A stretch of DNA of 20,000 bases from an uncultured virus (IMG/VR IMGVR_UViG_3300027906_000011) (lineage: Duplodnaviria > Heunggongvirae > Uroviricota > Caudoviricetes): IMG/VR virus record IMGVR_UViG_3300027906_000011. One strand, 5' to 3'. The translations under genes and the position numbers were made by a program. The first letter of the stretch is position 1. The number at the start of each line of letters is the position of its first letter. Shown piece after piece: positions 1-17,925 of this stretch. A model generated the notes under the pieces. That model worked only from the letters and a program-made list of their open reading frames with translations, was not told the DNA's origin and searched no databases.

Positions 1-823
1 CAGCAGCTTCAATAGCTGACCGTGTTGCGTATGTCACGCTCTCATTATTACCCACGCCGTCCTCAAACTCGACTAGTTGTGTTCCTTCTTCAATGAATCG
101 GAATACATCTCCCCCAGCACCATAAGAAAGAATAGTCTTTCTTGTTTGGACATTCAATAATACTTCTCCTGTGAGAACACTAACAGCCCTCATAGAAATT
201 GTCACAGCATCTTGACGATACTGTTTACTAAATCCAATCCCGAGAGTTCTTGCGCCTCGACCTCCGGTTAGTAGATTAGAATCATAACCAATTACACCAC
301 CCTCTATTATAATACCTGCGAAGAGCAGAGGTTGGATGCCTTGTGCTTCTGTTTCTGTAGCAGCAGCAAAATCTTGTCTGGCAGAACGAATAATCTGCCT
401 CTCTCTAACTAAGTTGTCTATACCACCTCTCTCGACAACTCTAAACCATTTCCCGCCACCGGCGGTTTTAAGTGCATCAATTACCATTGCCTCAGCACCT
501 TGTGAGACTGCGGTAGAGAATGATGCAATATTATCTTCTGACTTTCTTTGACCTGTTTTATCTAAGAACTTATAGACTGCAACCACTGGCATAGTTTCAG
601 CAGGTGGTAAGTTTAATAATTCTAGGTGGGCAGGAAGTCTTATTACTTCTGGCATGTCAACACAAATATACTTCCTAGACATAATTTTATTAATGCCTGT
701 GAGTATATCTTTGTTGAATCCTTCTGAGTATGTGCAATCTTGTGGTTCATAGGAGAACTTCGGTATTGATGCACAACCCGATAAAAGAAGTAGACTTAGT
801 ATGAAATACTTAGCCAGACCCAT
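1..823 (-). CDS. csgG: CsgG-family curli secretion outer-membrane lipoprotein channel (3' end truncated by window edge; missing from ORF track)
   Basis: Manual translation from ATG at 823: MGLAKYFILSLLLLSGC (lipobox LSGC), then LLNLPP..PVVAVYKFLDKTGQRK..SFSTAVSQGAEAMVIDALKTAG..WFRVVERGGIDNLVRERQIIR, and near position 1 GNNESVTYATRSAIEAA. These are typical CsgG motifs. Follows the csgF-like gene. Confidence 0.92.
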   Translation of the reverse strand, partial: MGLAKYFILSLLLLSGCASIPKFSYEPQDCTYSEGFNKDILTGINKIMSRKYICVDMPEVIRLPAHLELLNLPPAETMPVVAVYKFLDKTGQRKSEDNIASFSTAVSQGAEAMVIDALKTAGGGKWFRVVERGGIDNLVRERQIIRSARQDFAAATETEAQGIQPLLFAGIIIEGGVIGYDSNLLTGGRGARTLGIGFSKQYRQDAVTISMRAVSVLTGEVLLNVQTRKTILSYGAGGDVFRFIEEGTQLVEFEDGVGNNESVTYATRSAIEAA

Positions 824-1325
824 CGCCTTCACCTGTTCCATCAGAATCTTGTCCAAAGTTTCCTGATCCTATTGGTATTTCTAAGATAGTTTCTGTTCCA
901 TCTTCTCCAATAATAGTCATTCGAATAAATTCAGAACCATCAGCGTTGGTGATTACTTCATATGTCACTGTTGAACCCTCTAATACAAATGAACCAAAAC
1001 GAACACCAGTATCATTTGAAAACATAGATTCGACTAATTGTTTAGCCATTTGTGCATATATTCTTGACTCTAAATTACGAATGAATTTAGCAAGGGTTGT
1101 ATTATCTTCAGCTCTTTCAGCTGACTTTCTAGCAGACTCTAATGCATCTTCAATTTCTTTCTTACGAGTGAACTCTTGGTTCTCAACGGTAAGATAATGA
1201 GATGCAGTTCCTTTTCCACTAAACGATGGATTCTTGAACTCATGTTTGATTGGTGATGCACTCAAAGGTGCTACTAGTATTAATGTTAATAAGACTAAAT
1301 TAGTTGTCTTTAGTATCATCTTCAT
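810..1325 (-). CDS. csgF: CsgF-like curli assembly protein
   Basis: Signal peptide (..APLSAS) followed by HEFKNPSFSG, resembling the CsgF N-terminal FxNPxFGG pore-binding motif. Later LESRIYAQMAKQL segment. Overlaps csgG start. Start moved to ATG 1325, which has a GGAG RBS. Confidence 0.8.
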   Translation of the reverse strand: MKMILKTTNLVLLTLILVAPLSASPIKHEFKNPSFSGKGTASHYLTVENQEFTRKKEIEDALESARKSAERAEDNTTLAKFIRNLESRIYAQMAKQLVESMFSNDTGVRFGSFVLEGSTVTYEVITNADGSEFIRMTIIGEDGTETILEIPIGSGNFGQDSDGTGEGDGSG

Positions 1326-1641
1326 TTGGTTTCTCCCTAAGTGCAAGAGCCTGTTTATACTCTAACACTGTATTTAATTTTTCTTGCAATCTTATCTGGT
1401 CTTGGTCTAACATTCTCATTTGGTCGATAAGTCTTACAAGGACCGTTTGTTGTTTACCCAACTGCGGTTCTAATTCTTCCGTCACAAATTTCCAGACAAA
1501 GTAGATAAAATATCCCATTGCAAGAGCAATTATAATTGGGAATCCAAACTCATTGAGCATGTCTGCAACAGGAGAAAGATAATCAAGTTCTAAATCTGTT
1601 ATATCTTCTATTTCGCTTGCGCTGTTAATCTCTTCTTGCAT
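1300..1641 (-). CDS. Small single-TM membrane protein with helical C-terminus; paralog of 1625-1918
   Basis: EFGFPIIIALAMGYFIYFVWKF hydrophobic helix followed by a heptad-like tail; overlaps both neighbours. Confidence 0.75.
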   Translation of the reverse strand: MQEEINSASEIEDITDLELDYLSPVADMLNEFGFPIIIALAMGYFIYFVWKFVTEELEPQLGKQQTVLVRLIDQMRMLDQDQIRLQEKLNTVLEYKQALALREKPNEDDTKDN

Positions 1642-1918
1642 CTATGTTTCCATCCTCTACAAAATTTTCAGACCGTGCTACTCTGTCCAAATCTGGTCTT
1701 AACTCCAGAGTTTGTGAAATGAGTAAGTCGATTTTTAATATGTCATTATTCATAACTCTTGCCCTATCTTCTAGCATGGTAATAATACCTGTTAGACCTT
1801 TAACATTGTCAAGCACACCCTCAAGGATATACTTCAAGGTTAAGAATATGAAGAACGCCATAACAAGAGAACCAAAGATTGGCGCTCCGACTTCAGCTAA
1901 AAATTCTATCCAGTTCAT
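1625..1918 (-). CDS. Small single-TM membrane protein; first gene of the csgF/csgG operon
   Basis: EVGAPIFGSLVMAFFIFLTLKY hydrophobic helix; begins just downstream of the late promoter at 1933-1940. Confidence 0.78.
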   Translation of the reverse strand: MNWIEFLAEVGAPIFGSLVMAFFIFLTLKYILEGVLDNVKGLTGIITMLEDRARVMNNDILKIDLLISQTLELRPDLDRVARSENFVEDGNIDARRD

Positions 1919-8547: not shown

Positions 8548-8798
8548 TCCATGTCCTTAAGTAATCTCTGCATATCAATTGCAATAGAAGTCTTCTGACC
8601 CTTTCGCATTGTAGTATATGAATCGTTATTGACCCAAAATCTAAATGCCTTACATTCAACTTCTTCTTCAGCACAAAGCGCCTGTCTTGGACAGTCAAAC
8701 TTCACACATGGTCCTTTACCAACACTAACTATCGCCTCTTGAAACTTATCTAAGTTTACTGATTCGATATACCGAACCTCTTCCATTCTTATGCCCAT
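8544..8798 (-). CDS. Small four-cysteine (metal-binding?) hypothetical protein
   Basis: PCVKFDCPRQALCAEEEVECKAF; TAATG coupling to the upstream VWA gene. Confidence 0.7.
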   Translation of the reverse strand: MGIRMEEVRYIESVNLDKFQEAIVSVGKGPCVKFDCPRQALCAEEEVECKAFRFWVNNDSYTTMRKGQKTSIAIDMQRLLKDME

Positions 8799-11209
8799 TA
8801 TGCAATCTCCTTTATAAATTCATTTGTTAAAAATCTTGAAGTGGTTTTACCTTTTTGGTTTCTTTTGAAGGCAGCCATCACTCTGTTTTTGTTTGCACCG
8901 ATGTATTCATCATCAAGTTCATCTTCGCCTGAGGTGCCAAGGTTGGTTGCAGAAGTCAAGAACAATTTATTATAACCTTTGACTTCAATTACATGTCCTG
9001 CCTTTTTCATATCTCTCCACATTCCATCTATTTGGTCGTAAGCGCAATCGCCCAACAACTCATATGCAGTATTTCTGAATTCTGCCTTCTTAGAGAACAC
9101 AAAGTATCCTGTCACGGTCACATTACAAGTTTCTGATAACCAATCTAAAAGATTCTGAGTTGTTTCCATTCCAGTTCTGTAATCTGTTTTCTCGGTGAAA
9201 GTGAAACTCTTATTAATGTATGGGTCTAAGAAACTTCTTTTCATGTTCCATCTTGCAGTCCAACCATCTTCGCCCATTTGAGCCTTCTGGTCTGCTCTTT
9301 CTTGTTCTCCAGAATCAAAGAATCTTGAACTATGAGTATAACCATCTGTAATAACTGTTAAGATAGATTTCTCAATTTGATACTGGTGATTAAACTCTGG
9401 TAAGAATTTTCTCAATCCAACTAAACATTGGTCAAGAGGTGTGCCACCCAATCTGTAATTTTGTGGATACATTTGAGTGTCGTGAATATAACGATTGTTA
9501 TAATATGCATCGTTGTCCCAAGTTTGAACTCCACTAAAAATTCTATTGTATTCTGCAATCAAAGCTTCTTCTTTGTTTCTCCAAGTGTATGTAATAACTT
9601 CATGAATTCTAGAAACTAGTATTGAACTAAGATATGTAAACATCTCATTATACTCTCTGCCTGTTTGTTCATTAGAAAGTATTTCAACTAATTTACCATC
9701 ACCACTTGAACGATATTCATCAGCTCTTTTTATTGCATCTGAGAACAAATAAACTCTGAAAGGTATTTGAACTTTTCTACAGAACTCAGCAAGAATAAGA
9801 GATTGTTCAAGTAAGTCTGAAACTTCTCTAGAGATTGAACCAGACCAGTCAACTATAACATTTAAACCATGATTCTTACCATCAGGTATGTAAGTGACTC
9901 TTTTGAAGATATCATCTACTATCTGATACTTTGCAAGTCTATTCATATCAAGTTCACCACTTGTGCCTGTATATGCCTTGGCAGTTCTATGAGCAGTTTG
10001 TCTCATCTCGAATTCTTTTGCCATGTGAGCAACAATCTTTTTGTTCTTGGTTTGAATATACTTCTTATAGTGAGTTGCAAGTTTAAGATAATGTTTTCTC
10101 GCTTCAATTTGTTCGGTGCCTCTTCTGATTTTCCAATCATCTTCTTCACCATAATCTTTTGCATTTTTGATTTCTTCAATTTCTTTTAGTAATCTTGCAC
10201 CAGTCATGTAGTCTCTCCAATCTTGAAGAACTTCTTTATAATCATATTTGATACTATCTATATCAAACTCTTTAAATCTTTCTCTTAATGGAATAGTTGT
10301 CTCGATTCTGGCGTTTTCATCTACGAACTGGTCTTCGTTGTTGTGAGCCGCATGTTCGGTGATTGATTCTCTTGCACCCTCAGGTTCATCATATCTACCT
10401 TCGAACTTGCCACCCTCTCTACCAGTGACTTTTATTTCAGACTCTTCTTCTTTAGTCTCTTCGGACTCTTCATCAGATTCTTGTTCAAGTTGAGGTGGAG
10501 TTTCTTCTTCATCTTCATCTTCTTCCTCAGACTCTTCATAATCAAACTGATTCTCTTCTAACTCTTCGGACTCTTCATCGTCTTCAAGTTCTTCTTCCTC
10601 AGGCATTTGAAATGTGACCTGTTCGTCATTCTCATCTCTTTTTTCATTTTCTTTAGACCATTCATATATTGCAGTGGCACATTCTACGACATCTTCCCAT
10701 GTCTTACAATCTTGTGCCATATCTAAGAACTTTTGTTCTTCATCAGTAAGAGTGATACTAACTTTAGAACCACACTTTGTAATGAGGTTGATTTTATCAA
10801 TCAATGAAAGTTCTTGAAGGTCTCTTCCTTTTATACCAAAGAAGTTTCTTTTTATTAACTCATCATACGCCTTGAAGAATGAAGTTCTTAATCCTTGATA
10901 TTTGTTTTTAATCGCCTTCTCAATTCTTACATCTTCAACAACATTAAGATATCCTTTAAGTGTTCTATTCTCACTGATAGTGGAATGAAGTCCCTCGTAT
11001 GGAGTATTCAATGCGTGTCCAACTTCATGACCCATAAACAAGTCATAAAGTGCAGGCGATAAATCATCTTTAAAAGTAGGACAAGCAAGAACCCTATTCT
11101 TCACATCAAAATATGCGGTGGGTATTGCTTTATGAACTATGGTAAGATTCTCTGTAGCCATTAATCTGGCGAGATTATCTTTCTGATTTCTTAATTTTTC
11201 TGATGTCAT
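8798..11209 (-). CDS. HEXXH metallopeptidase-like + VWA domain protein (CobT-like partner of the AAA+ ATPase)
   Basis: GHEVGHAL and NVVEDVRIE at the N-terminus; long acidic linker; MIDAS DWSGS, LGGTPL, ITDG. Confidence 0.85.
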   Translation of the reverse strand: MTSEKLRNQKDNLARLMATENLTIVHKAIPTAYFDVKNRVLACPTFKDDLSPALYDLFMGHEVGHALNTPYEGLHSTISENRTLKGYLNVVEDVRIEKAIKNKYQGLRTSFFKAYDELIKRNFFGIKGRDLQELSLIDKINLITKCGSKVSITLTDEEQKFLDMAQDCKTWEDVVECATAIYEWSKENEKRDENDEQVTFQMPEEEELEDDEESEELEENQFDYEESEEEDEDEEETPPQLEQESDEESEETKEEESEIKVTGREGGKFEGRYDEPEGARESITEHAAHNNEDQFVDENARIETTIPLRERFKEFDIDSIKYDYKEVLQDWRDYMTGARLLKEIEEIKNAKDYGEEDDWKIRRGTEQIEARKHYLKLATHYKKYIQTKNKKIVAHMAKEFEMRQTAHRTAKAYTGTSGELDMNRLAKYQIVDDIFKRVTYIPDGKNHGLNVIVDWSGSISREVSDLLEQSLILAEFCRKVQIPFRVYLFSDAIKRADEYRSSGDGKLVEILSNEQTGREYNEMFTYLSSILVSRIHEVITYTWRNKEEALIAEYNRIFSGVQTWDNDAYYNNRYIHDTQMYPQNYRLGGTPLDQCLVGLRKFLPEFNHQYQIEKSILTVITDGYTHSSRFFDSGEQERADQKAQMGEDGWTARWNMKRSFLDPYINKSFTFTEKTDYRTGMETTQNLLDWLSETCNVTVTGYFVFSKKAEFRNTAYELLGDCAYDQIDGMWRDMKKAGHVIEVKGYNKLFLTSATNLGTSGEDELDDEYIGANKNRVMAAFKRNQKGKTTSRFLTNEFIKEIA

Positions 11210-11247: not shown

Positions 11248-11454
11248 TTAATTATAAGTATTTGATTCTATTGTGTCTACAGTAGAACTCATACTTGATA
11301 TATCGGACTCTAGTGAGTTCAATGAACTTTCTAAATTACTCAATGAACTTTCTAGTGAATCAAGTTTTGATGCCAGTGCATCATTGACTTCAATTACTTT
11401 GTCTATTGTGTCGACTATCTGTTTCATAATCTGCGTGTTGGTTGGATGTCCCAT
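11248..11454 (-). CDS. Small Ser-rich coiled-coil protein
   Basis: Heptad repeats LDSLESSLSNLESSLNSLESDISSM; start ATG 11454 with RBS AAGGAG. Confidence 0.7.
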   Translation of the reverse strand: MGHPTNTQIMKQIVDTIDKVIEVNDALASKLDSLESSLSNLESSLNSLESDISSMSSTVDTIESNTYN

Positions 11455-11473
11455 TATTTTTCTCCTTTGTTGT

Positions 11474-11695
11474 TTACCATTCTTTGTAGAAACCTTCGGC
11501 TTCATTATCGTTATAACCTTTCATATAAATCTTTATTTGATATGGTGTTAAATCTGTTATTCGTTTCCCATGGTATGTTCCATGAGGATAATAGTGAGGT
11601 TTTATACCTCGTCTATAATAAGAGTCGCAAGTGCCTCTGTCATAAAGACCACCATTGACTGTGTGTTTTTCTGCAATTCCTTCTACTTCAAACAT
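11474..11695 (-). CDS. Hypothetical early protein
   Basis: 73 aa, GGLYDRG..DSYYRR..PHYY; RBS AAGGAG. Confidence 0.75.
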   Translation of the reverse strand: MFEVEGIAEKHTVNGGLYDRGTCDSYYRRGIKPHYYPHGTYHGKRITDLTPYQIKIYMKGYNDNEAEGFYKEW

Positions 11696-11918
11696 AATTT
11701 ACTCCTTTATTTGAATCTCTGTCGAACCTATTATCAAGAGTGCAACCATCATAAAAGAAGTCTTTATCCCAATCGGTTCCTAAGATATTTGTTAAGGTAG
11801 TGTCTGCAACATCATCAGTTGGATGCGGCCATACTATATTATGATAAGCATCTTTAGATATTGGAACTACCGTTGGAATGTCTGTTGCAATGTGTGTTAA
11901 ATTTATACTGTATCTCAT
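11688..11918 (-). CDS. Hypothetical early protein
   Basis: 76-aa ORF tightly packed between its neighbours. Confidence 0.65.
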   Translation of the reverse strand: MRYSINLTHIATDIPTVVPISKDAYHNIVWPHPTDDVADTTLTNILGTDWDKDFFYDGCTLDNRFDRDSNKGVNYV

Positions 11919-11921
11919 ATC

Positions 11922-12146
11922 TTATCCGTGGGGACCTGGTATGTTGACTGCATCGTCAAACAGTTGTGTCATTAAAACAGTTCGTGCAAAGTCTATGATG
12001 TTTGCACCATGTGCTTTGTCTCCTGTGAATTTTGAAACTTTGGTTAAGTTTGTTGGGTTTAAAGCAGCTACAACTGCCATGTCTGTCATGTCACACACAT
12101 CAGCAGTGATGTTGTCCACGATTATGTCATTACTAAAGTGACTCAT
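11922..12146 (-). CDS. Hypothetical early protein
   Basis: 74-aa ORF with RBS AAGGAG directly behind early promoter copy 3. Confidence 0.72.
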   Translation of the reverse strand: MSHFSNDIIVDNITADVCDMTDMAVVAALNPTNLTKVSKFTGDKAHGANIIDFARTVLMTQLFDDAVNIPGPHG

Positions 12147-12186: not shown

Positions 12187-12216
12187 AGGATAACAAAAAG
12201 TGAGACCCATTGTCAA
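12187..12216 (-). promoter_or_regulatory. Phage early sigma70-type promoter (copy 3)
   Basis: TTGACA ATGGGTCTCACTTTTTGT TATCCT (18-nt spacer). Confidence 0.75.
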
Positions 12217-12251: not shown

Positions 12252-12890
12252 TTAATTTTGTTGCAGACGGTAGGAATCTTCGTCAACATCTAGGTCTTTC
12301 ACAGGATATATGGGCATAGTTCTGTCCACATCTGTAGTAAACCAGAAGGATAATGTATGTCGTGGGTGTCTTCGGACCTTCGAAACACCATGTGGTATGT
12401 AGATACCTTGAAATAGTAGGCCTGAACCTGTCTCTGGTTCGTATGTTTCACCACCAGGAATGTAAGTTCTGCCACCATTAAAGTTATCGTTTAGATATAA
12501 GATACAAGTCCATTCTCTTGAAGGTTTCTCAGGACTTGTCCCATGTTTCTTTTCTTGATTTGAATATGTATCTAGATGTGGTTCTTGAATACCACCGATT
12601 GGCCACTCATTGAGTGCAATCATTTCTGGAAATACAATCTGGTCTGATGTCTTTCTGACTTCTCCTATCAGATTAACTATTACTTCTGTAATCCAGTTTC
12701 TTATGTGTGGAGTGTGTATGTGCATGAATCTGATACCAGTGTAATCAGAACCATCACCAACTCCTTCTATGTGTCTATGACTCTTGTGAAACTTTATCAG
12801 TTCCTGACATCTCTCCATCGACATCAGATTTTGAATCATTCTTGGCTTGTAATTGCTGGAAGTATCTTGCAAGTTCAATTCGTTTTTCAT
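12252..12890 (-). CDS. 2OG-Fe(II) oxygenase (prolyl-4-hydroxylase-like)
   Basis: HxD (PHLD), CILYLNDNFNGG, distal H (IPHGV), R.TL.FW. Start uncertain (12890 or 12839). Confidence 0.88.
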   Translation of the reverse strand: MKNELNLQDTSSNYKPRMIQNLMSMERCQELIKFHKSHRHIEGVGDGSDYTGIRFMHIHTPHIRNWITEVIVNLIGEVRKTSDQIVFPEMIALNEWPIGGIQEPHLDTYSNQEKKHGTSPEKPSREWTCILYLNDNFNGGRTYIPGGETYEPETGSGLLFQGIYIPHGVSKVRRHPRHTLSFWFTTDVDRTMPIYPVKDLDVDEDSYRLQQN

Positions 12891-13410
12891 ATTCTAATCT
12901 CTTCTTTCTTACCTTAGAACGAGACTTCAATGCTCGTTCTATTTTTAATTTGGATGCTCTTTGTAGGAAGAGTATACCATTCAAATGGTCAATCTCGTGT
13001 TGAACACATCTTGCACCAACACCTTCTAATACTGCTGTCTGTTCTTTGCCATCAACATCTTGATATTTGAACTCTATTGTTTTTGACCTTTTAATCATTA
13101 AGAATATATCTGGAAAAGATAAACAACCTTCTTTTAAAAGTTCAGTCTCTTGTGATACTCGTGTCAATTCAGGATTAAAGTATGCGACATTCTCTGGTTC
13201 TTTATCTCCTTCATGCATAGTTTTCATGATAAACAATCTATATGGCAAACCAACTTGGTTTGCAGATAAACCCAACCCACCGAATTTGTCCATCGCTTCG
13301 CTAAGGTTCTTAGCAATCTCTTTGGGGTCTTCTGGTGGATTCTCGAAATCAAACTCCGGTGGCGGAGTTCTTAATACTTTTGAAGCTTCTTCTATGAGTT
13401 TATACATCAT
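12775..13410 (-). CDS. def: Peptide deformylase
   Basis: Motifs GLGLSANQVG, EGCLS, QHEIDHLNG. Confidence 0.96.
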   Translation of the reverse strand: MMYKLIEEASKVLRTPPPEFDFENPPEDPKEIAKNLSEAMDKFGGLGLSANQVGLPYRLFIMKTMHEGDKEPENVAYFNPELTRVSQETELLKEGCLSFPDIFLMIKRSKTIEFKYQDVDGKEQTAVLEGVGARCVQHEIDHLNGILFLQRASKLKIERALKSRSKVRKKRLEYEKRIELARYFQQLQAKNDSKSDVDGEMSGTDKVSQES

Positions 13411-13413
13411 AAC

Positions 13414-14589
13414 TTATTTATCTGATTCTTCGCCGTGACCTTTCATGAAGTATGGATAAGCTTTAGAACCTGCTTCCCACATATCTGAACCACCAACTTC
13501 TTCTTGTTCACCGACTCTTATACCTACAGTCTTGTCTAATGCCCACCATAATAGATATGATGATGCAAATACAAAACCAAATATCGTGACTGTTCCATAT
13601 GCTTGATGAAGGAAACTTGCATCAGAATTTAGTATAGGAACTAACATAAGTCCTAAAATACCTGCGACACCATGAACTGATATTGCACCAACTGGATCAT
13701 CACAACCTTTTCTTTCTATCCAACTCATGATAACAGGCATCATTAATCCGCCTAGTGAACCATATAGTAATGCGATTGCTGGTGAAGGTGTTAAGGGGTC
13801 AGCAGTTATGACTACTAGACCTGCCAATGCACCATTCGTTGTGGCGTTTAAGGCAGTCTTTCCTAACCATAATTTAGATAATATCATTGCAGATATAAGA
13901 CCACCAGCAGCGGCAGTATTAGTGTTTACGAATATCTTTGCGACTGCATCTGCGTTCTCTATACCGGTGATTGCGAGTTGTGAACCACCATTGAATCCAA
14001 ACCATCCCATCCATAAAATAAGTGTGCCTAATGCGACTTGAGCCGCATTGGAACCGTGTATTGGTCTAGGTGTTCCGTCTTTTAAGTATTTACCCTTTCT
14101 TGGTCCAAGAATCATGACTCCTGCGAGTGCGGCTGAAGCGCCTGCCATATGAACTATACCAGAACCTGCGAAGTCAAAGAACCCTCTCTGACTCAACCAA
14201 CCACCACCCCATGTCCAAGAACCTTGGATTGGATATATGATTGTAGTGAAGATAGCGGCAAACAATAAGAATGTCCATAACTTCTTTCGTTCTGCGACTG
14301 CACCAGATACTACTGACATTGCAGTTGCAACGAATACTACTTGAAAAAAGAAATCAGAATACACCGAATGTGTTTCTATATCTCCCCACCCATACATAAG
14401 GGAATAACCCCCTAATAAGAACCCTACAGATGCAACACTATAAAGTGCAACATTCTTTAGAAGTATCTCAATAACATTCTTACTTCTTACTGAACCAGCT
14501 TCTAACATAGTGAAACCTGCAGCCATCCACATGACTAAGACTCCACTCATTAAAAAGTAAAATGTGTTTAATGAATATGCTAAATCCAT
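13414..14589 (-). CDS. amt: Ammonium transporter (Amt/Mep/Rh family)
   Basis: Polytopic membrane protein with GFTMLEAG.VRSKN, FFQVVF, SGAVAER, WGGGWL, DFAGSGIVH, GWFGFNGGS, NGALAGLV.IT, DDPVGAISVHG; RBS GAGGAG. Confidence 0.96.
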   Translation of the reverse strand: MDLAYSLNTFYFLMSGVLVMWMAAGFTMLEAGSVRSKNVIEILLKNVALYSVASVGFLLGGYSLMYGWGDIETHSVYSDFFFQVVFVATAMSVVSGAVAERKKLWTFLLFAAIFTTIIYPIQGSWTWGGGWLSQRGFFDFAGSGIVHMAGASAALAGVMILGPRKGKYLKDGTPRPIHGSNAAQVALGTLILWMGWFGFNGGSQLAITGIENADAVAKIFVNTNTAAAGGLISAMILSKLWLGKTALNATTNGALAGLVVITADPLTPSPAIALLYGSLGGLMMPVIMSWIERKGCDDPVGAISVHGVAGILGLMLVPILNSDASFLHQAYGTVTIFGFVFASSYLLWWALDKTVGIRVGEQEEVGGSDMWEAGSKAYPYFMKGHGEESDK

Positions 14590-14603
14590 ACTCTTCTCCT
14601 CTA

Positions 14604-16322
14604 TTATGAAATTGCTATACGACTAAAGTTCTTATATTTTTCGAAACGAATTACTTCTTCGAACTTATCGTATAATTGGTCTCCCTTATGGGATATAATA
14701 AAAGCATTTGTTTTCTCATTCAATGAGTTCAATAACTTTAAGAAGTCATCGGTACCTTGTGAATCTAAAGAACTATCAAATACTTCATCCAGTATAAGTA
14801 TGTTTGTATTTACTGAGTTCTTTATTCTTGCGACAGCTCTCCATGTGAAGAGTAATGCAAGGTCAATTCTCATCTTCTCACCTTGTGAAAAGTTATCATA
14901 CTTAAATACATCTCTAAATCTGGATTTGATTGTCTCTTCAAAAGATTCATTCAATTCAAATCCAACATAAAATTCTAAATTGGCCAGATACTTGTTTATC
15001 ATCTTATTCATAACTGGAACATATTGTTTAATAATTCTTTGTCTCACACCTTGGTCTCTTAATAAGGTTGTTGCGAGGTCGAAATAGTGTTGTCTATCAG
15101 TTAAGTTTTCTTTCTTTATATGTAATGCATCTAGGTCATCTTCTGCTGTAGTCAACTTATCATGAACATTAGCATCACCAGAATTTTCATTTTGTAAGTC
15201 TTTGATTTCCTGGTTTAATTTGTCTATGTATTTCTGATTAGATAGTATCTCTGTTTGATGTAAACCAATCTTTCTTTGTAGTTCTTCTATATCATCTTGA
15301 ATAAGATTTATTCTTTGGATTTCATCGTGGCATGAGTCGATTGTTTTTGTAATATCATTGAGCGCCGTCTGGATTTCATTCGATTTAGCCTTTCTTTCTT
15401 TAATATGTTTCTTCTTGTGTTCTTCATCTAAACCTTGTTTGCATGTTGGACAATCATCATTCTCTTGATAAAATAAGACATCTTGGTCAGCTTTAGCTCT
15501 AGCTTGTTCCAATTGCCTTTCTATATCTAGTGTTTCACTTAATCTATCTTCGTTTGATTTCTTGTTAGTTATAAGTTTTTTCTTTTTATCAATCTCTTTG
15601 TTTTCTAGACCGACATCTCTCATAACCTTTTCTATGTTGTCTTGTGTTTCTGTAATAGTGCCTTCATATTTCTGTATCTTCTTATCACGGTTTCTCTGTA
15701 AAAGATTCATCTGTTCATTCAAACCATTTATTCTTTCTTCTAATAACTCTATCTCGTGGTTTGTTTCTCTCACATCTATATTATGTTGTGTGACTTTCTT
15801 CTTTAATATGTCCTGCATTGTGGAGAAAATAGATATGTCTAGTAAGTCCTCTACTAGTCTCCTTCTCTCTACTGACTTTAACTGCATGAATGGAGTAAAG
15901 TTAGCAGAACCTAATACTGCAACTTGTGTAAAGGAACGATAAGACATCTTAAGAATATTTTTCTCTAAGTGTTCTTGATAGTCTCTCATGGTTGCATCTT
16001 GATTTATTAATGCATCATTAACATACAACTCAAATCTGTTTGGTTTTGCTCCACGAATAACTTTATACTTCTTTCTTCCAATATGAAACTCTACCTCACA
16101 TATCAATTCTTTACTATTGATAGAGTTAACCAACAGGTCTTTCTTTAAGTTTCTAAATCCTTTTCCATATAATGCGAAACATAATGCATCTAATAAAGTA
16201 GATTTGCCGGCGCCATTGTCACCAACAATAAGAGTTGTTTGAGCTCTATCGAGTTCTATGGAAGTAAAGGTATTTCCTGACGATAACAAATTTTTGTATC
16301 GTATCTTTTTAAAATTAATCAT
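14604..16322 (-). CDS. gp46: Recombination endonuclease subunit gp46 (Rad50/SbcC-like)
   Basis: Walker A GDNGAGKS, CPTC zinc hook, FSQGEK signature, LILDEVFDSSLD, ISH. Confidence 0.97.
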   Translation of the reverse strand: MINFKKIRYKNLLSSGNTFTSIELDRAQTTLIVGDNGAGKSTLLDALCFALYGKGFRNLKKDLLVNSINSKELICEVEFHIGRKKYKVIRGAKPNRFELYVNDALINQDATMRDYQEHLEKNILKMSYRSFTQVAVLGSANFTPFMQLKSVERRRLVEDLLDISIFSTMQDILKKKVTQHNIDVRETNHEIELLEERINGLNEQMNLLQRNRDKKIQKYEGTITETQDNIEKVMRDVGLENKEIDKKKKLITNKKSNEDRLSETLDIERQLEQARAKADQDVLFYQENDDCPTCKQGLDEEHKKKHIKERKAKSNEIQTALNDITKTIDSCHDEIQRINLIQDDIEELQRKIGLHQTEILSNQKYIDKLNQEIKDLQNENSGDANVHDKLTTAEDDLDALHIKKENLTDRQHYFDLATTLLRDQGVRQRIIKQYVPVMNKMINKYLANLEFYVGFELNESFEETIKSRFRDVFKYDNFSQGEKMRIDLALLFTWRAVARIKNSVNTNILILDEVFDSSLDSQGTDDFLKLLNSLNEKTNAFIISHKGDQLYDKFEEVIRFEKYKNFSRIAIS

Positions 16323-17386
16323 AGATAATTGTGTTCGTCTAATGCTTCATTATATAAGGAAGTCATCAATTCGAATAGTGGTTTTTTCTGACCTTGTATT
16401 TCAAGACCATCTATATACTTTTCTAATATAGTAAGAGTGTCTTCTACTCCTTCTATATCATCATCGTCCATTAAGTCCATATGTTTATGGTCGTCTACTA
16501 CAACAACATGCAACGGATTAGCGGCATGTAGTTTGTCTACCATAGAATCAAACCAATATGGATTTTCTTTATTGACTACTATCATCTTCACAAATTTGCC
16601 TGTGAATTTTGAATAGTCTTTATTTGATATTGTTTCGAATGATTCTTTTGTATCATCGTAGAAACATTTTTCAAACATAGTTAATGGATTATGAACTGGT
16701 AACATCTCTCTAGTATCTGTATCAAATATATGGAAGTATTTTTCGTCTCCATAATCTGACCAAGTGAATTGCATTTGAGAACCTAGATATCTGATGTTCT
16801 TAACTTCTGATTTTTGATGAAAGTGACCACTATAAACTTTGTCGAATCGTTTTAGATATGTGTGGTCTAGACCATGTTGACATGTCATTCCAGGCATCAT
16901 TAAAGCGCCCTCTATCTCGAAATGACCTAAACATGTATCTGCATTAGCACTTAATAAAAAGTCTATACTATCTGCATAGTTCTCATTATTAATCCAAGGA
17001 ACAAGTGCGAGATTAACTCCATCGAATTCCTTTACTATGGGTTCTGTTATAACTTGAATGTTATCATGTTCAAACAGTAATAAGTCTGGTGAGTTTACTT
17101 CATTGGTATTCTTATAATAGGTATCATGATTACCTATAATCAAATCCATAGAAATGTCCCTATCTAACATAGGTTGGATAAAGTGTTCTCTATTTGCTTT
17201 TAGACTTGCGAAGTTGACATACTTTCTTCTGTCGAAGTAATCTCCAAGATGTAAAATATGTTTAATGTTGTGTTCATCAAGATATGGAAAGAATACTTCT
17301 TCATAGAATCGTCCTTGATATTTGGACATTTCTAACATATCTCCACGAACACCTGCATGGGTGTCGTTGAGTATCGCTATTTTCAT
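16319..17386 (-). CDS. gp47: Recombination endonuclease subunit gp47 (Mre11/SbcD-like)
   Basis: DTH, GDYFD, GNHD and SGHFH metallophosphoesterase motifs; precedes gp46. Confidence 0.97.
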   Translation of the reverse strand: MKIAILNDTHAGVRGDMLEMSKYQGRFYEEVFFPYLDEHNIKHILHLGDYFDRRKYVNFASLKANREHFIQPMLDRDISMDLIIGNHDTYYKNTNEVNSPDLLLFEHDNIQVITEPIVKEFDGVNLALVPWINNENYADSIDFLLSANADTCLGHFEIEGALMMPGMTCQHGLDHTYLKRFDKVYSGHFHQKSEVKNIRYLGSQMQFTWSDYGDEKYFHIFDTDTREMLPVHNPLTMFEKCFYDDTKESFETISNKDYSKFTGKFVKMIVVNKENPYWFDSMVDKLHAANPLHVVVVDDHKHMDLMDDDDIEGVEDTLTILEKYIDGLEIQGQKKPLFELMTSLYNEALDEHNYL

Positions 17387-17925
17387 TCAGTAAATTTATC
17401 TAGACCCTTAGTCGTAGTTGTCTTTTTTCTTTTTGATTTCCTTGGTTCGTATTGAACATGATTCATGTTGTCTTGCATCCACTCAACATTAGTATTAGTC
17501 ATACCAGTAGTGTCACCATCTATTGTTTCGAATGTTTCTTGAGTGATATCTGATATGATTTGTTGCTTAATGAAAACTTGTTTCTTCTCTTTCTGTATCC
17601 TTCTTAGAAAGGCGTAATAACAAATTTGTGTAATATATGCAAATGCGTTGTTTGATTTTTCTACATTGAAGTTCTTGATATACTGAATACAATTCTCAAT
17701 TGCATCACATATCATTTCATCTCTGTAGGTGTAATTTATAAAGTTTGGTCGTGTAGATAGTCGAGTTGCAATCTTATATATGCACTCTCCTATGTAATTA
17801 GACATCTGTGGTGGGGTTCTGCCCTCTTCCTCGGCAAGCACAACGGCGGCGTTGTGTTCGGCGACTGCGGCTGTGAACTCTTTGTTATTGACATAGTGTT
17901 CACCTTGTTTTGCGTTTTTTGCCAT
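17383..17925 (-). CDS. gp55: Late-transcription sigma factor gp55
   Basis: HYVNNKEF..NFINYTYRDEMICDAIENC..NAFAYITQICYYAFLRRIQKEKKQ. Confidence 0.96.
   Translation of the reverse strand: MAKNAKQGEHYVNNKEFTAAVAEHNAAVVLAEEEGRTPPQMSNYIGECIYKIATRLSTRPNFINYTYRDEMICDAIENCIQYIKNFNVEKSNNAFAYITQICYYAFLRRIQKEKKQVFIKQQIISDITQETFETIDGDTTGMTNTNVEWMQDNMNHVQYEPRKSKRKKTTTTKGLDKFTE

Follow-up and report, generated by a model that had tools for sequence, protein, structure and literature searches.

The 20,000-nucleotide stretch of an uncultured Caudoviricetes genome analysed here (IMG/VR record IMGVR_UViG_3300027906_000011; hereafter the window, always at its full length) carries an amt gene, coding for a member of the Amt family of ammonium transporters, among the replication and recombination genes of a T4-like phage. 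We consider it likely that this gene codes for a functional Amt, that it is packed together with early/middle phage genes, that it belongs to a mobile lineage devoid of P-II and that no co-encoded GlnK gates its product. Most marine bacteria prefer ammonium to other nitrogen sources, and GlnK, by plugging AmtB, normally throttles its uptake within seconds. In the mechanism that we propose, the phage would place an Amt-type ammonium channel in the inner membrane of the infected cell, probably made together with the early/middle replication and recombination genes in the series gp47-gp46-amt-def-2OG (2OG stands for a 2-oxoglutarate-Fe(II) oxygenase gene), a timing suggested by the company that amt keeps. 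The channel would thereby offer extra capacity for ammonium uptake when the synthesis of progeny nucleotides and proteins needs nitrogen. Its lineage would descend from the GlnK-linked AmtB type of Gammaproteobacteria and would now be passed between several lineages of marine phages and a small number of marine Gammaproteobacteria with small genomes, P-II never adjoining it, and the uptake may conceivably escape GlnK of any origin. The role in nitrogen uptake is suggested as the most economical reading of the conserved pore residues, the confidently predicted 11-helix structure and the low ratio of non-synonymous to synonymous substitution rates (dN/dS 0.05-0.13).

The amt open reading frame (ORF; 13414..14589, minus strand) codes for 391 aa and matches the PF00909 profile from position 3 to position 399 of 399 (E 1.6e-86, 291 bits against a cut-off of 23.2). 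The alignment to E. coli AmtB (1xqe; AmtB residues in mature numbering) identified counterparts of the twin pore histidines (GIVH, H147 = H168; SVHG, H306 = H318), of the Phe gate (FQVVF, F82 = F103 and F86 = F107; WFGF, W196 = W212 and F199 = F215), of the binding-site residues (W127 = W148, S203 = S219) and of D160 (D139). In AmtB, functional roles are established for H168/H318, for F107/F215, for W148/S219, which form the periplasmic Trp/Ser site, and for D160. Their phage counterparts and the remaining mapped residues (H147, H306, W127, D139, F82, F86, W196, F199 and S203) are invariant in an alignment of 47 sequences. The AlphaFold2 model (predicted local distance difference test, pLDDT, 91.1; predicted template modelling score, pTM, 0.89) shows 11 long helices; its cytoplasmic C-terminal region is short, with helices at residues 361-373 after transmembrane helix 11. 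Foldseek matched it to the Amt structures 6eu6, 8qpf, 2b2f and 2nuu_A with TMq 0.86-0.89 and root-mean-square deviations (rmsd) of 2.2-3.2. The phage protein has no signal peptide, its helix 1 beginning at residue 2. Thus the initial annotation, which was made from the sequence letters and described an intact 391-aa Amt with the motifs GIVH, SVHG, FQVVF and WFGF and a conserved Trp region, holds on both counts: the profile match is full-length, the model has the 11 helices, the functional residues are kept, and each motif aligns with functional residues of E. coli AmtB. On the strength of sequence and model, the phage amt very probably encodes a working ammonium channel.

Or perhaps the Amt fold is used by the phage in another way, for ammonium sensing, for ammonia efflux in infection, or as a membrane protein that changes the cell surface or keeps out superinfecting phages? 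Two observations speak in this direction, the first of them also against an uptake role. The solved structures nearest to the phage Amt by sequence are sensor-type Amts (6eu6 and 8qj3), the 'Sensor Amt Protein' 6eu6 and the Sd-Amt1 receptor being matched with E ~1e-52 as against 8e-28 for E. coli AmtB, and Amt channels are called bidirectional in the available text of a review (PMC9083009). The phage ORF, however, runs on for only 13 residues after residue 378, where the Pfam match stops, and def begins 3 nt further on, so that there is no fused output or signalling domain; the solved sensors in the match list are 644-661 aa long. The fused cytoplasmic signalling domain of the sensor type (Ks-Amt5/Sd-Amt1) was not found in the window ORF, longer fused relatives not having been searched for. 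All residues of the transport pathway are invariant, and the nearest cellular relatives are ordinary glnK-linked amtB genes of 400-450 aa. We regard a role other than import as quite improbable.

The window Amt belongs to one well-supported clade, whose members are 66-100% identical. More than 120 protein clusters in a large protein database are 84-100% identical to the window Amt, 61 clade loci (72-100% identity) are present in IMG/VR, and 59 of 80 metagenome loci fall in the clade (DNA was examined for 80 of at least 119 stretches). Of these 59, at least 29 bear phage markers, 5 are of cellular types and 25 are unmarked. The clade is monophyletic with support of 100 in both the FastTree and the IQ-TREE phylogeny and is set on a long stem among gammaproteobacterial AmtBs. 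A second scan, with the clade peptide GAVAERKKL, added no new members, the loci L236 and L245 being without an Amt. In all 15 pairs compared across the clade dN/dS lies between 0.050 and 0.129, and the GC content at third codon positions (GC3) of the window amt (0.278) falls within the range of eight neighbouring phage genes (0.272-0.316). Because dN/dS is low and GC3 equals that of the neighbours, amt is under strong purifying selection and long adapted to the phage codon composition.

Within T4-like backbones the clade amt occupies at least five positions: it lies between gp46 and def in 4 IMG/VR loci and the window, separates gp55 from gp47 in 9 loci, stands some 2 kb upstream of uvsW in 9, is placed between uvsW and gp55 in L308, and adjoins the genes for the large terminase (terL) and the tail sheath, on either side, in L085. 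It was found also in unrelated contexts, with ribonucleotide reductase genes, distant SbcCD, spanins, a different terminase/portal, or a PstS-like gene (the last on a 213 kb contig). Within one backbone type (L084-L089) the identity of Amt (90%) parallels that of gp55 (92%) and gp47 (89%), whereas between backbone types Amt remains 73-88% identical, as against 41-66% for gp55, gp47, gp46 and uvsW. The decoupled identities of Amt and of the core proteins, with the differing insertion points, show that amt spread between phage lineages after their backbones had diverged.

Two of the large clade contigs in IMG/VR show neighbours of separate interest. In L131 (213 kb, ~61% complete) a TctA-family transporter and a class-I glutamine amidotransferase-like protein precede Amt, and a PstS-like phosphate-binding protein and then virion structural proteins follow; the surroundings of amt resemble an island for nutrient uptake, and the phage is probably a jumbo phage. 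In L136 (110 kb) a gene for NAD synthase (PF02540; 9991-10935) lies two genes downstream of amt, with a cysteine-dioxygenase-like gene adjoining and MazG near, and the NAD synthase may be an ammonia-consuming partner of the channel.

No P-II gene was found in the window: a six-frame tblastn search and a P-II hidden Markov model applied to 169 six-frame segments returned nothing better than E 9. None is present in a near-identical 28.6 kb record (G001), nor does P-II adjoin amt in any of the 61 viral clade loci (in 41 of which at least 1 kb is visible on both sides) or of the 59 metagenome clade loci; three large clade contigs of 129.6 kb (71% complete), 109.8 kb and 212.9 kb, with completeness from 30 to 71%, are likewise without P-II. 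The absence of an adjacent glnK, remarked upon in the initial annotation together with the suggestion to look for P-II in the rest of the genome, therefore extends over the whole clade and, as far as G001 and the incomplete 110-213 kb contigs reach, beyond the immediate surroundings of amt. Among the nearest cellular homologs, P-II lies near amt in 70 of 80 in a first scan (49-59% identity, among the matches listed) and in 43 of 43 in a second one (54-60%, mostly Pseudoalteromonas). A separate viral clade, 56-60% identical to that of the window, carries P-II in 14 of 14 cases, which indicates that phages are able to carry the glnK-amtB pair. A third viral Amt clade (L153-L160 in IMG/VR; GC 0.31), 52-53% identical to the window Amt, is also without P-II and groups in the tree near the AmtBs of Sedimenticola and Desulfobulbales.

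If no GlnK is encoded next to the channel, could the channel also be free of control by the GlnK of the host? GlnK docks on the cytoplasmic half of AmtB. Sites that are conserved in both the clade and its P-II-linked relatives, yet differ between the two groups, fall in this half in 9 of 9, 14 of 17 and 28 of 42 cases at three thresholds (permutation P 0.008, 0.022 and 0.068); the nine hallmark substitutions of the cytoplasmic half are S33, K102, Q184, V185, N248, P285, M288, E292 and G295. The absence of P-II from the clade, the replacement of glnK-amtB in a cellular locus (see below) and these cytoplasmic-half changes strengthen the idea of a GlnK-free channel, and we put forward the independence of the phage Amt from GlnK as a tentative prediction, somewhat less likely than not.

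Several observations weigh against this prediction. The cytoplasmic enrichment fades at looser thresholds (P 0.068), the sites are clustered and not independent, and the topology behind the count was taken from the order of helices and not from coordinates. The C-terminal cytoplasmic motif IRV..EE..G.D....G..AYP.F is kept within the clade and is of the same type as in the P-II-linked relatives, and the model superposes well on the AmtB of the AmtB-GlnK complex (2nuu_A; TMq 0.89, rmsd 2.2), so that the docking surface for GlnK may persist. A P-II gene may lie elsewhere in these phage genomes, the large related contigs being incomplete. Finally, escape from GlnK would be irrelevant if the host had no P-II, as is the case for SAR11 according to the available text of PMC3870248. 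A complex prediction for the phage Amt with the GlnK encoded beside a Pseudoalteromonas amtB scored 0.00 in both runs and constitutes evidence neither way.

The same retained features suit another scheme, in which the functional Amt is regulated in the ordinary manner: the phage would supply more copies of the channel, still plugged by the host GlnK, and P-II would be missing because phages needed or captured the channel only. The retained C-terminal motif, the cytoplasmic architecture that superposes on GlnK-bound AmtB and the derivation of the clade from P-II-linked AmtBs all agree with it, as does the near invariance of the P-II T-loop (24 GlnKs aligned), owing to which the plug would be the same whichever gammaproteobacterial host supplied the GlnK. 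It accounts less well for the clade Amt taking the place of a GlnK-AmtB pair in a cellular locus, for the two carrier genomes without a detected P-II (with the limits given below), for the clustering of conserved-but-different residues on the cytoplasmic half, and for the other viral clade always keeping glnK with amtB when the clade of the window never does. Taken together, we find ordinary regulation rather unlikely. At the opposite extreme, a GlnK-independent channel cassette would circulate between marine phages and small-genome Gammaproteobacteria, displace the native glnK-amtB and be carried to bypass the nitrogen gate of the host, the nine hallmark substitutions abolishing the docking of GlnK; in this full form the proposal is doubtful.

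Members of the clade occur also in cells, as Gcw_chp-Amt pairs on a small number of gammaproteobacterial contigs. A scan of 185,579 species genomes with a clade-specific peptide found three members (77-79% identity), all on short contigs of metagenome-assembled genomes (MAGs); cellular clade copies are 77-80% identical to the window Amt, and named cellular genomes reach at most 60% among the matches listed. The idea of a virus-only clade was rejected, as the three MAG contigs have cellular genes around amt (the pyruvate dehydrogenase E1 subunit, PDH E1, a TonB receptor, IlvA and glucokinase), and the idea that these contigs are mis-binned phage DNA was rejected because the Pfam analysis shows cellular neighbours. 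One context (L169) reads GntR, short-chain dehydrogenase/reductase, TonB-dependent receptor, Gcw_chp, Amt, PDH E1; the other (L193 and L178, joined by the metagenome contig L269) reads ABC-F, glucokinase, Gcw_chp, Amt, IlvA. Between these contexts the Gcw_chp-Amt pairs share 93-96% identity. L169 is a 19 kb contig (G007:C70) of a MAG labelled Dehalococcoidia bacterium UBA1152, with a TonB-dependent receptor and an AceE-type PDH E1; it is probably mis-binned, since the other 14 genomes in the family of its MAG lack an ortholog of this PDH E1 (25-29% identity). Compared with the orthologs from the family of another MAG, G009, the L169 enzyme reaches only 47-53% identity. The named SAR86 genome (L076, G042) does not figure in the G009 family. 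The IlvA of the second context is at most 65% identical to proteins of named genomes (Gammaproteobacteria MED-G80, Woeseiaceae MAGs).

Only 1 of the 15 genomes in one MAG family and 2 of the 20 in the other have the clade Amt, the Amts of the other members being 34-50% identical, and the cellular copies look horizontally acquired. The clearest case is one orthologous locus. In G037 (L429, G037:C25) the order is Gcw_chp-P-II-Amt-IlvA, with an Amt only 28-32% identical to the clade type; in L269 it is Gcw_chp-clade Amt-IlvA, with 91% identity to G037 in IlvA and 66% in Gcw_chp. The comparison indicates that the clade-type Amt is a replacement for glnK-amtB, i.e. a cassette swap. The Amt typical of the family has P-II adjacent in 7 of the 7 family genomes where it was found. 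No P-II was seen in two MAGs with the clade Amt, an absence consistent with replacement and of limited weight, since no more than 11 of the 20 family genomes, incomplete as they are, showed P-II. In a side observation, amt has a Gcw_chp-like gene as its neighbour in the phage loci L271 (31% identical, between gp55 and amt) and L311 (43%). As the cellular loci have Gcw_chp immediately before amt or glnK-amtB, phages may on occasion have acquired the two genes jointly.

A single shallow clade (support 100) unites the six cellular copies, and this clade the FastTree topology and the branches supported by the SH-like approximate likelihood ratio test (SH-aLRT) nest among phage sequences. By the approximately unbiased (AU) test, a tree in which the cellular clade branches off before every phage and unassigned copy could not be rejected (p-AU 0.373, log-likelihood difference 6.5), and both a single phage-to-cell transfer and repeated capture from one cellular lineage fit the data. 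The initial annotation had suggested that the phylogeny of Amt could identify the host. This suggestion was not supported: the clade is common to phages with only 41-66% identity in core proteins, named genomes reach at most the 60% given above, and the cellular copies themselves look acquired.

All long ORFs of the window lie on the minus strand and make up a T4-like replication/recombination module. The features, in the direction of transcription, are as follows.

Before gp55, minus strand: uvsW, C-terminus; the first gene of the module in the window.
17383..17925, minus strand: gp55-like late sigma factor (phrog_234, E 1.2e-58); upstream backbone gene.
16319..17386, minus strand: gp47, SbcD-like recombination nuclease subunit (phrog_100, E 7e-101; PF00149).
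14604..16322, minus strand: gp46, SbcC/Rad50-like recombination nuclease subunit (phrog_77, E 4e-161; PF13476, PF02463, Rad50 zinc hook); directly upstream of amt.
14590..14603, minus strand: gp46-amt spacer of 14 nt with a GAGGAG ribosome-binding site; too short for a promoter or terminator.
13414..14589, minus strand: amt (PF00909), predicted Amt-family channel of the P-II-less mobile clade.
12775..13410, minus strand: def, peptide deformylase of 211 aa with a C-terminal extension (PF01327, E 2e-41; phrog_2890).
12252..12890, minus strand: 2OG-Fe(II) oxygenase, prolyl/Asp-Asn hydroxylase-like (PF13640, E 8e-10; phrog_2297 and phrog_61, the PHROG match starting from residue 19).
12187..12216, minus strand: sigma-70-like promoter match TTGACA-18-TATCCT with TG (10/12 matches, the best of the region), just downstream of the 2OG stop.
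11248-12146: four small ORFs with no assigned function, after 2OG.
8798-11209, minus strand: 803-aa protein (phrog_459, 'peptidase', E 2e-155) with no Pfam family.
Further downstream, in order: CobS, DUF3310, gp45, gp44, gp62, regA, then the curli-like CsgF/CsgG cluster.
2-1918, minus strand: curli-like type VIII secretion cluster, with CsgG (PF03783, E 7e-49; runs off the window end) and CsgF (PF10614, E 1e-11).
1300-1641 and 1625-1918, minus strand: two tandem phrog_18771 paralogs within the curli-like cluster.

The genes around amt are tightly packed. The stop codon of gp46 lies at 14604-14606 and the amt ATG at 14589, 14 nt on; the sequence itself shows this spacing, which the initial annotation had also given. 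Only 3 nt separate the amt stop (13414-13416) from the start codon of def (ATG at 13410). Between the ORFs of def and 2OG there is an overlap of 116 nt counted from the first 2OG ATG, or of 65 nt if the oxygenase starts at Met18 (12839). The overlap involves a Lys/Glu-rich C-terminal extension of def, ~55 aa beyond the Pfam domain, and the related contigs L081-L083 show the same lengths. Judged from this spacing, gp46-amt-def-2OG can be inferred to be co-transcribed. No terminator-like site was found between gp46 and amt, and a search near amt for a dedicated promoter, a terminator or a T4 late-promoter motif gave nothing above chance; the lack of a dedicated promoter counts against the proposed mechanism. 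The scan yielded 17 sigma-70-like matches as compared with a mean of 27.7 in shuffled sequence, and the single TATAAATA in the window corresponds to the chance level; the match at 12187..12216 may start the next transcription unit. The phrog_459 protein is encoded upstream of CobS, as is its counterpart in the phage HTVC008M, and therefore may be a CobT-like partner of CobS.

The order gp46-amt-def-2OG is common to three IMG/VR contigs (L081-L083) and the 28.6 kb record G001. Each junction is in addition bridged by contigs from independent assemblies of three further DNA runs (X2-X4): gp46/amt by X2 record 15 (14414-14880, 0 mismatches) and X4 record 28, amt/def by X3 record 20 (0 mismatches) and X4 record 26, and def/2OG by X3 record 19 and X4 record 26. 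Parts of the stretch were found in 20 runs from 15 studies. These data bear on a rival explanation, in which amt is an artefact, host DNA wrongly joined to phage sequence during assembly, or else a decaying passenger, captured recently and neutrally. The existence of cellular contigs with clade members at 77-80% identity and an overall GC of amt (0.406) above that of the neighbours (0.32-0.39) might suggest such an origin. The junctions, however, recur in the four other assemblies and in the three runs, GC3 equals that of the neighbours and the higher total GC is explained by the Gly/Ala-rich composition of the protein, dN/dS is as low as 0.05-0.13, and phage markers stand beside amt in at least 29 of the 59 metagenome clade loci and in many IMG/VR loci. 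An artefact or a decaying passenger is thus highly improbable. The initial annotation had held contamination unlikely on account of the flanking phage genes and had named the gp46-amt-def junctions as one point at which its view could fail; gp46 upstream and def, 2OG, CobS and gp45 downstream, the agreement of independent assemblies, and contigs from three other runs across each junction all uphold it. In one metatranscriptome library (X13), contigs extend over def and amt and cross the junction between the two. They are compatible with expression of amt, with the reservation, unfavourable to this reading, that the strand cannot be read from them and that their source may be DNA.

The phage backbone has its nearest cultured relatives in Melnitz (a phage of OM43), HTVC008M and Mosig (phages of SAR11), the Stenotrophomonas phage DLP_6 and cyanomyoviruses, with 43-62% identity in gp46/gp44; the gp46 of the window is 44-45% identical to those of Melnitz and HTVC008M, which have the same gene order, but no amt annotated at the corresponding place. 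The collection of named phages contained no close Amt (22 records matched, the best at 39% on unannotated 'Bacteriophage sp.' records), and a megablast of the whole window against it returned five tiny matches only. Pelagimyophages are described, in the available text of PMC7029224, as having def, one of their core genes, inside the operon for DNA metabolism, and as carrying curli genes and a 2OG gene of the hydroxylase-like kind. The arrangement of CsgG/CsgF in the window is as described for pelagimyophages and Melnitz-like phages. As both the gene order and the published traits match, the window phage is an uncultured relative of the pelagimyophage/Melnitz group.

Through a channel of this kind, carried by phages and abundant in ocean metagenomes, infection would have a direct route to rewire the nitrogen flux of the virocell. 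Should the escape from GlnK be true, the clade would provide a natural GlnK-insensitive Amt, useful for working out how Amt proteins are regulated, and would present a case of phages spreading a regulatory bypass instead of a new enzyme. As regards annotation, the amt gene should be treated as real and not as contamination, and as unsuited for a host marker, and short cellular contigs with a clade amt are prone to mis-binning.

Phage-borne amt as such is already known, as the initial annotation stated of viral amt genes: stand-alone phage amt genes were described at Station ALOHA, where they rise at and below the deep chlorophyll maximum (Luo et al. 2020, PMC7174320), and viral P-II-amt pairs were reported by Roux et al. 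2016 (10.1101/053090) and Gazitua et al. 2020 (PMC8115048), as far as the available text of these papers goes. For the stand-alone type, only the ALOHA paper and one listing in a Mariana Trench virome turned up in the literature, as accessible in part. We found no description there of a single mobile P-II-less clade, common to a few bacteria and replacing glnK-amtB, though the supplements may bear on it; judging from the sequences, it is the absence of P-II throughout the clade, the mobility and the cellular replacement that would be additions to the known picture.

In comparison with the known systems, the backbone of the window resembles pelagimyophages and Melnitz-like methylophages (PMC7029224, PMC9004378) in the T4-like replication module, the placement of def, the 2OG/Asp-Asn hydroxylase-like gene, CobS and CsgF/CsgG, and differs from them in core proteins that are only 44-62% identical; the words 'ammonium' and 'amt' do not occur in the accessible main text of Zaragoza-Solas et al. 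2020 (PMC7029224) or Buchholz et al. 2022 (PMC9004378). The ALOHA phage amt genes (PMC7174320) are, like the one studied here, carried by contigs of marine double-stranded DNA phages, are most similar to bacterial homologs and were proposed to aid ammonium acquisition; in the available text they are described without phylogeny, gene context or a link to P-II, unlike the clade of the window. The published viral glnK-amtB pairs (10.1101/053090, PMC8115048), which correspond to the separate viral clade at 56-60% identity, share with the window an occurrence on some T4-like contigs, an AmtB of proteobacterial/Bacteroidetes origin and the status of a nitrogen auxiliary metabolic gene, and, in the text available, have P-II immediately upstream of amt, which the clade of the window never has. 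The Amt of an Ostreococcus tauri virus, reported to be transcribed in infection and to transport ammonium and methylammonium (Monier 2017, as cited in the available part of PMC9083009), is a functional precedent for a viral Amt, with the difference that it is a host-derived eukaryotic-type Amt of a eukaryotic giant virus and has no bearing on GlnK. Finally, with respect to E. coli AmtB and its complex with GlnK (1xqe, 2nuu, 2ns1), the phage Amt is only 25-28% identical, lacks the signal peptide and an adjacent glnK and has shorter loops (391 aa), and it nevertheless shares the fold of 11 helices (TMq 0.79-0.89) and retains both pore histidines, the Phe gate, the S1 site and the C-terminal cytoplasmic region.

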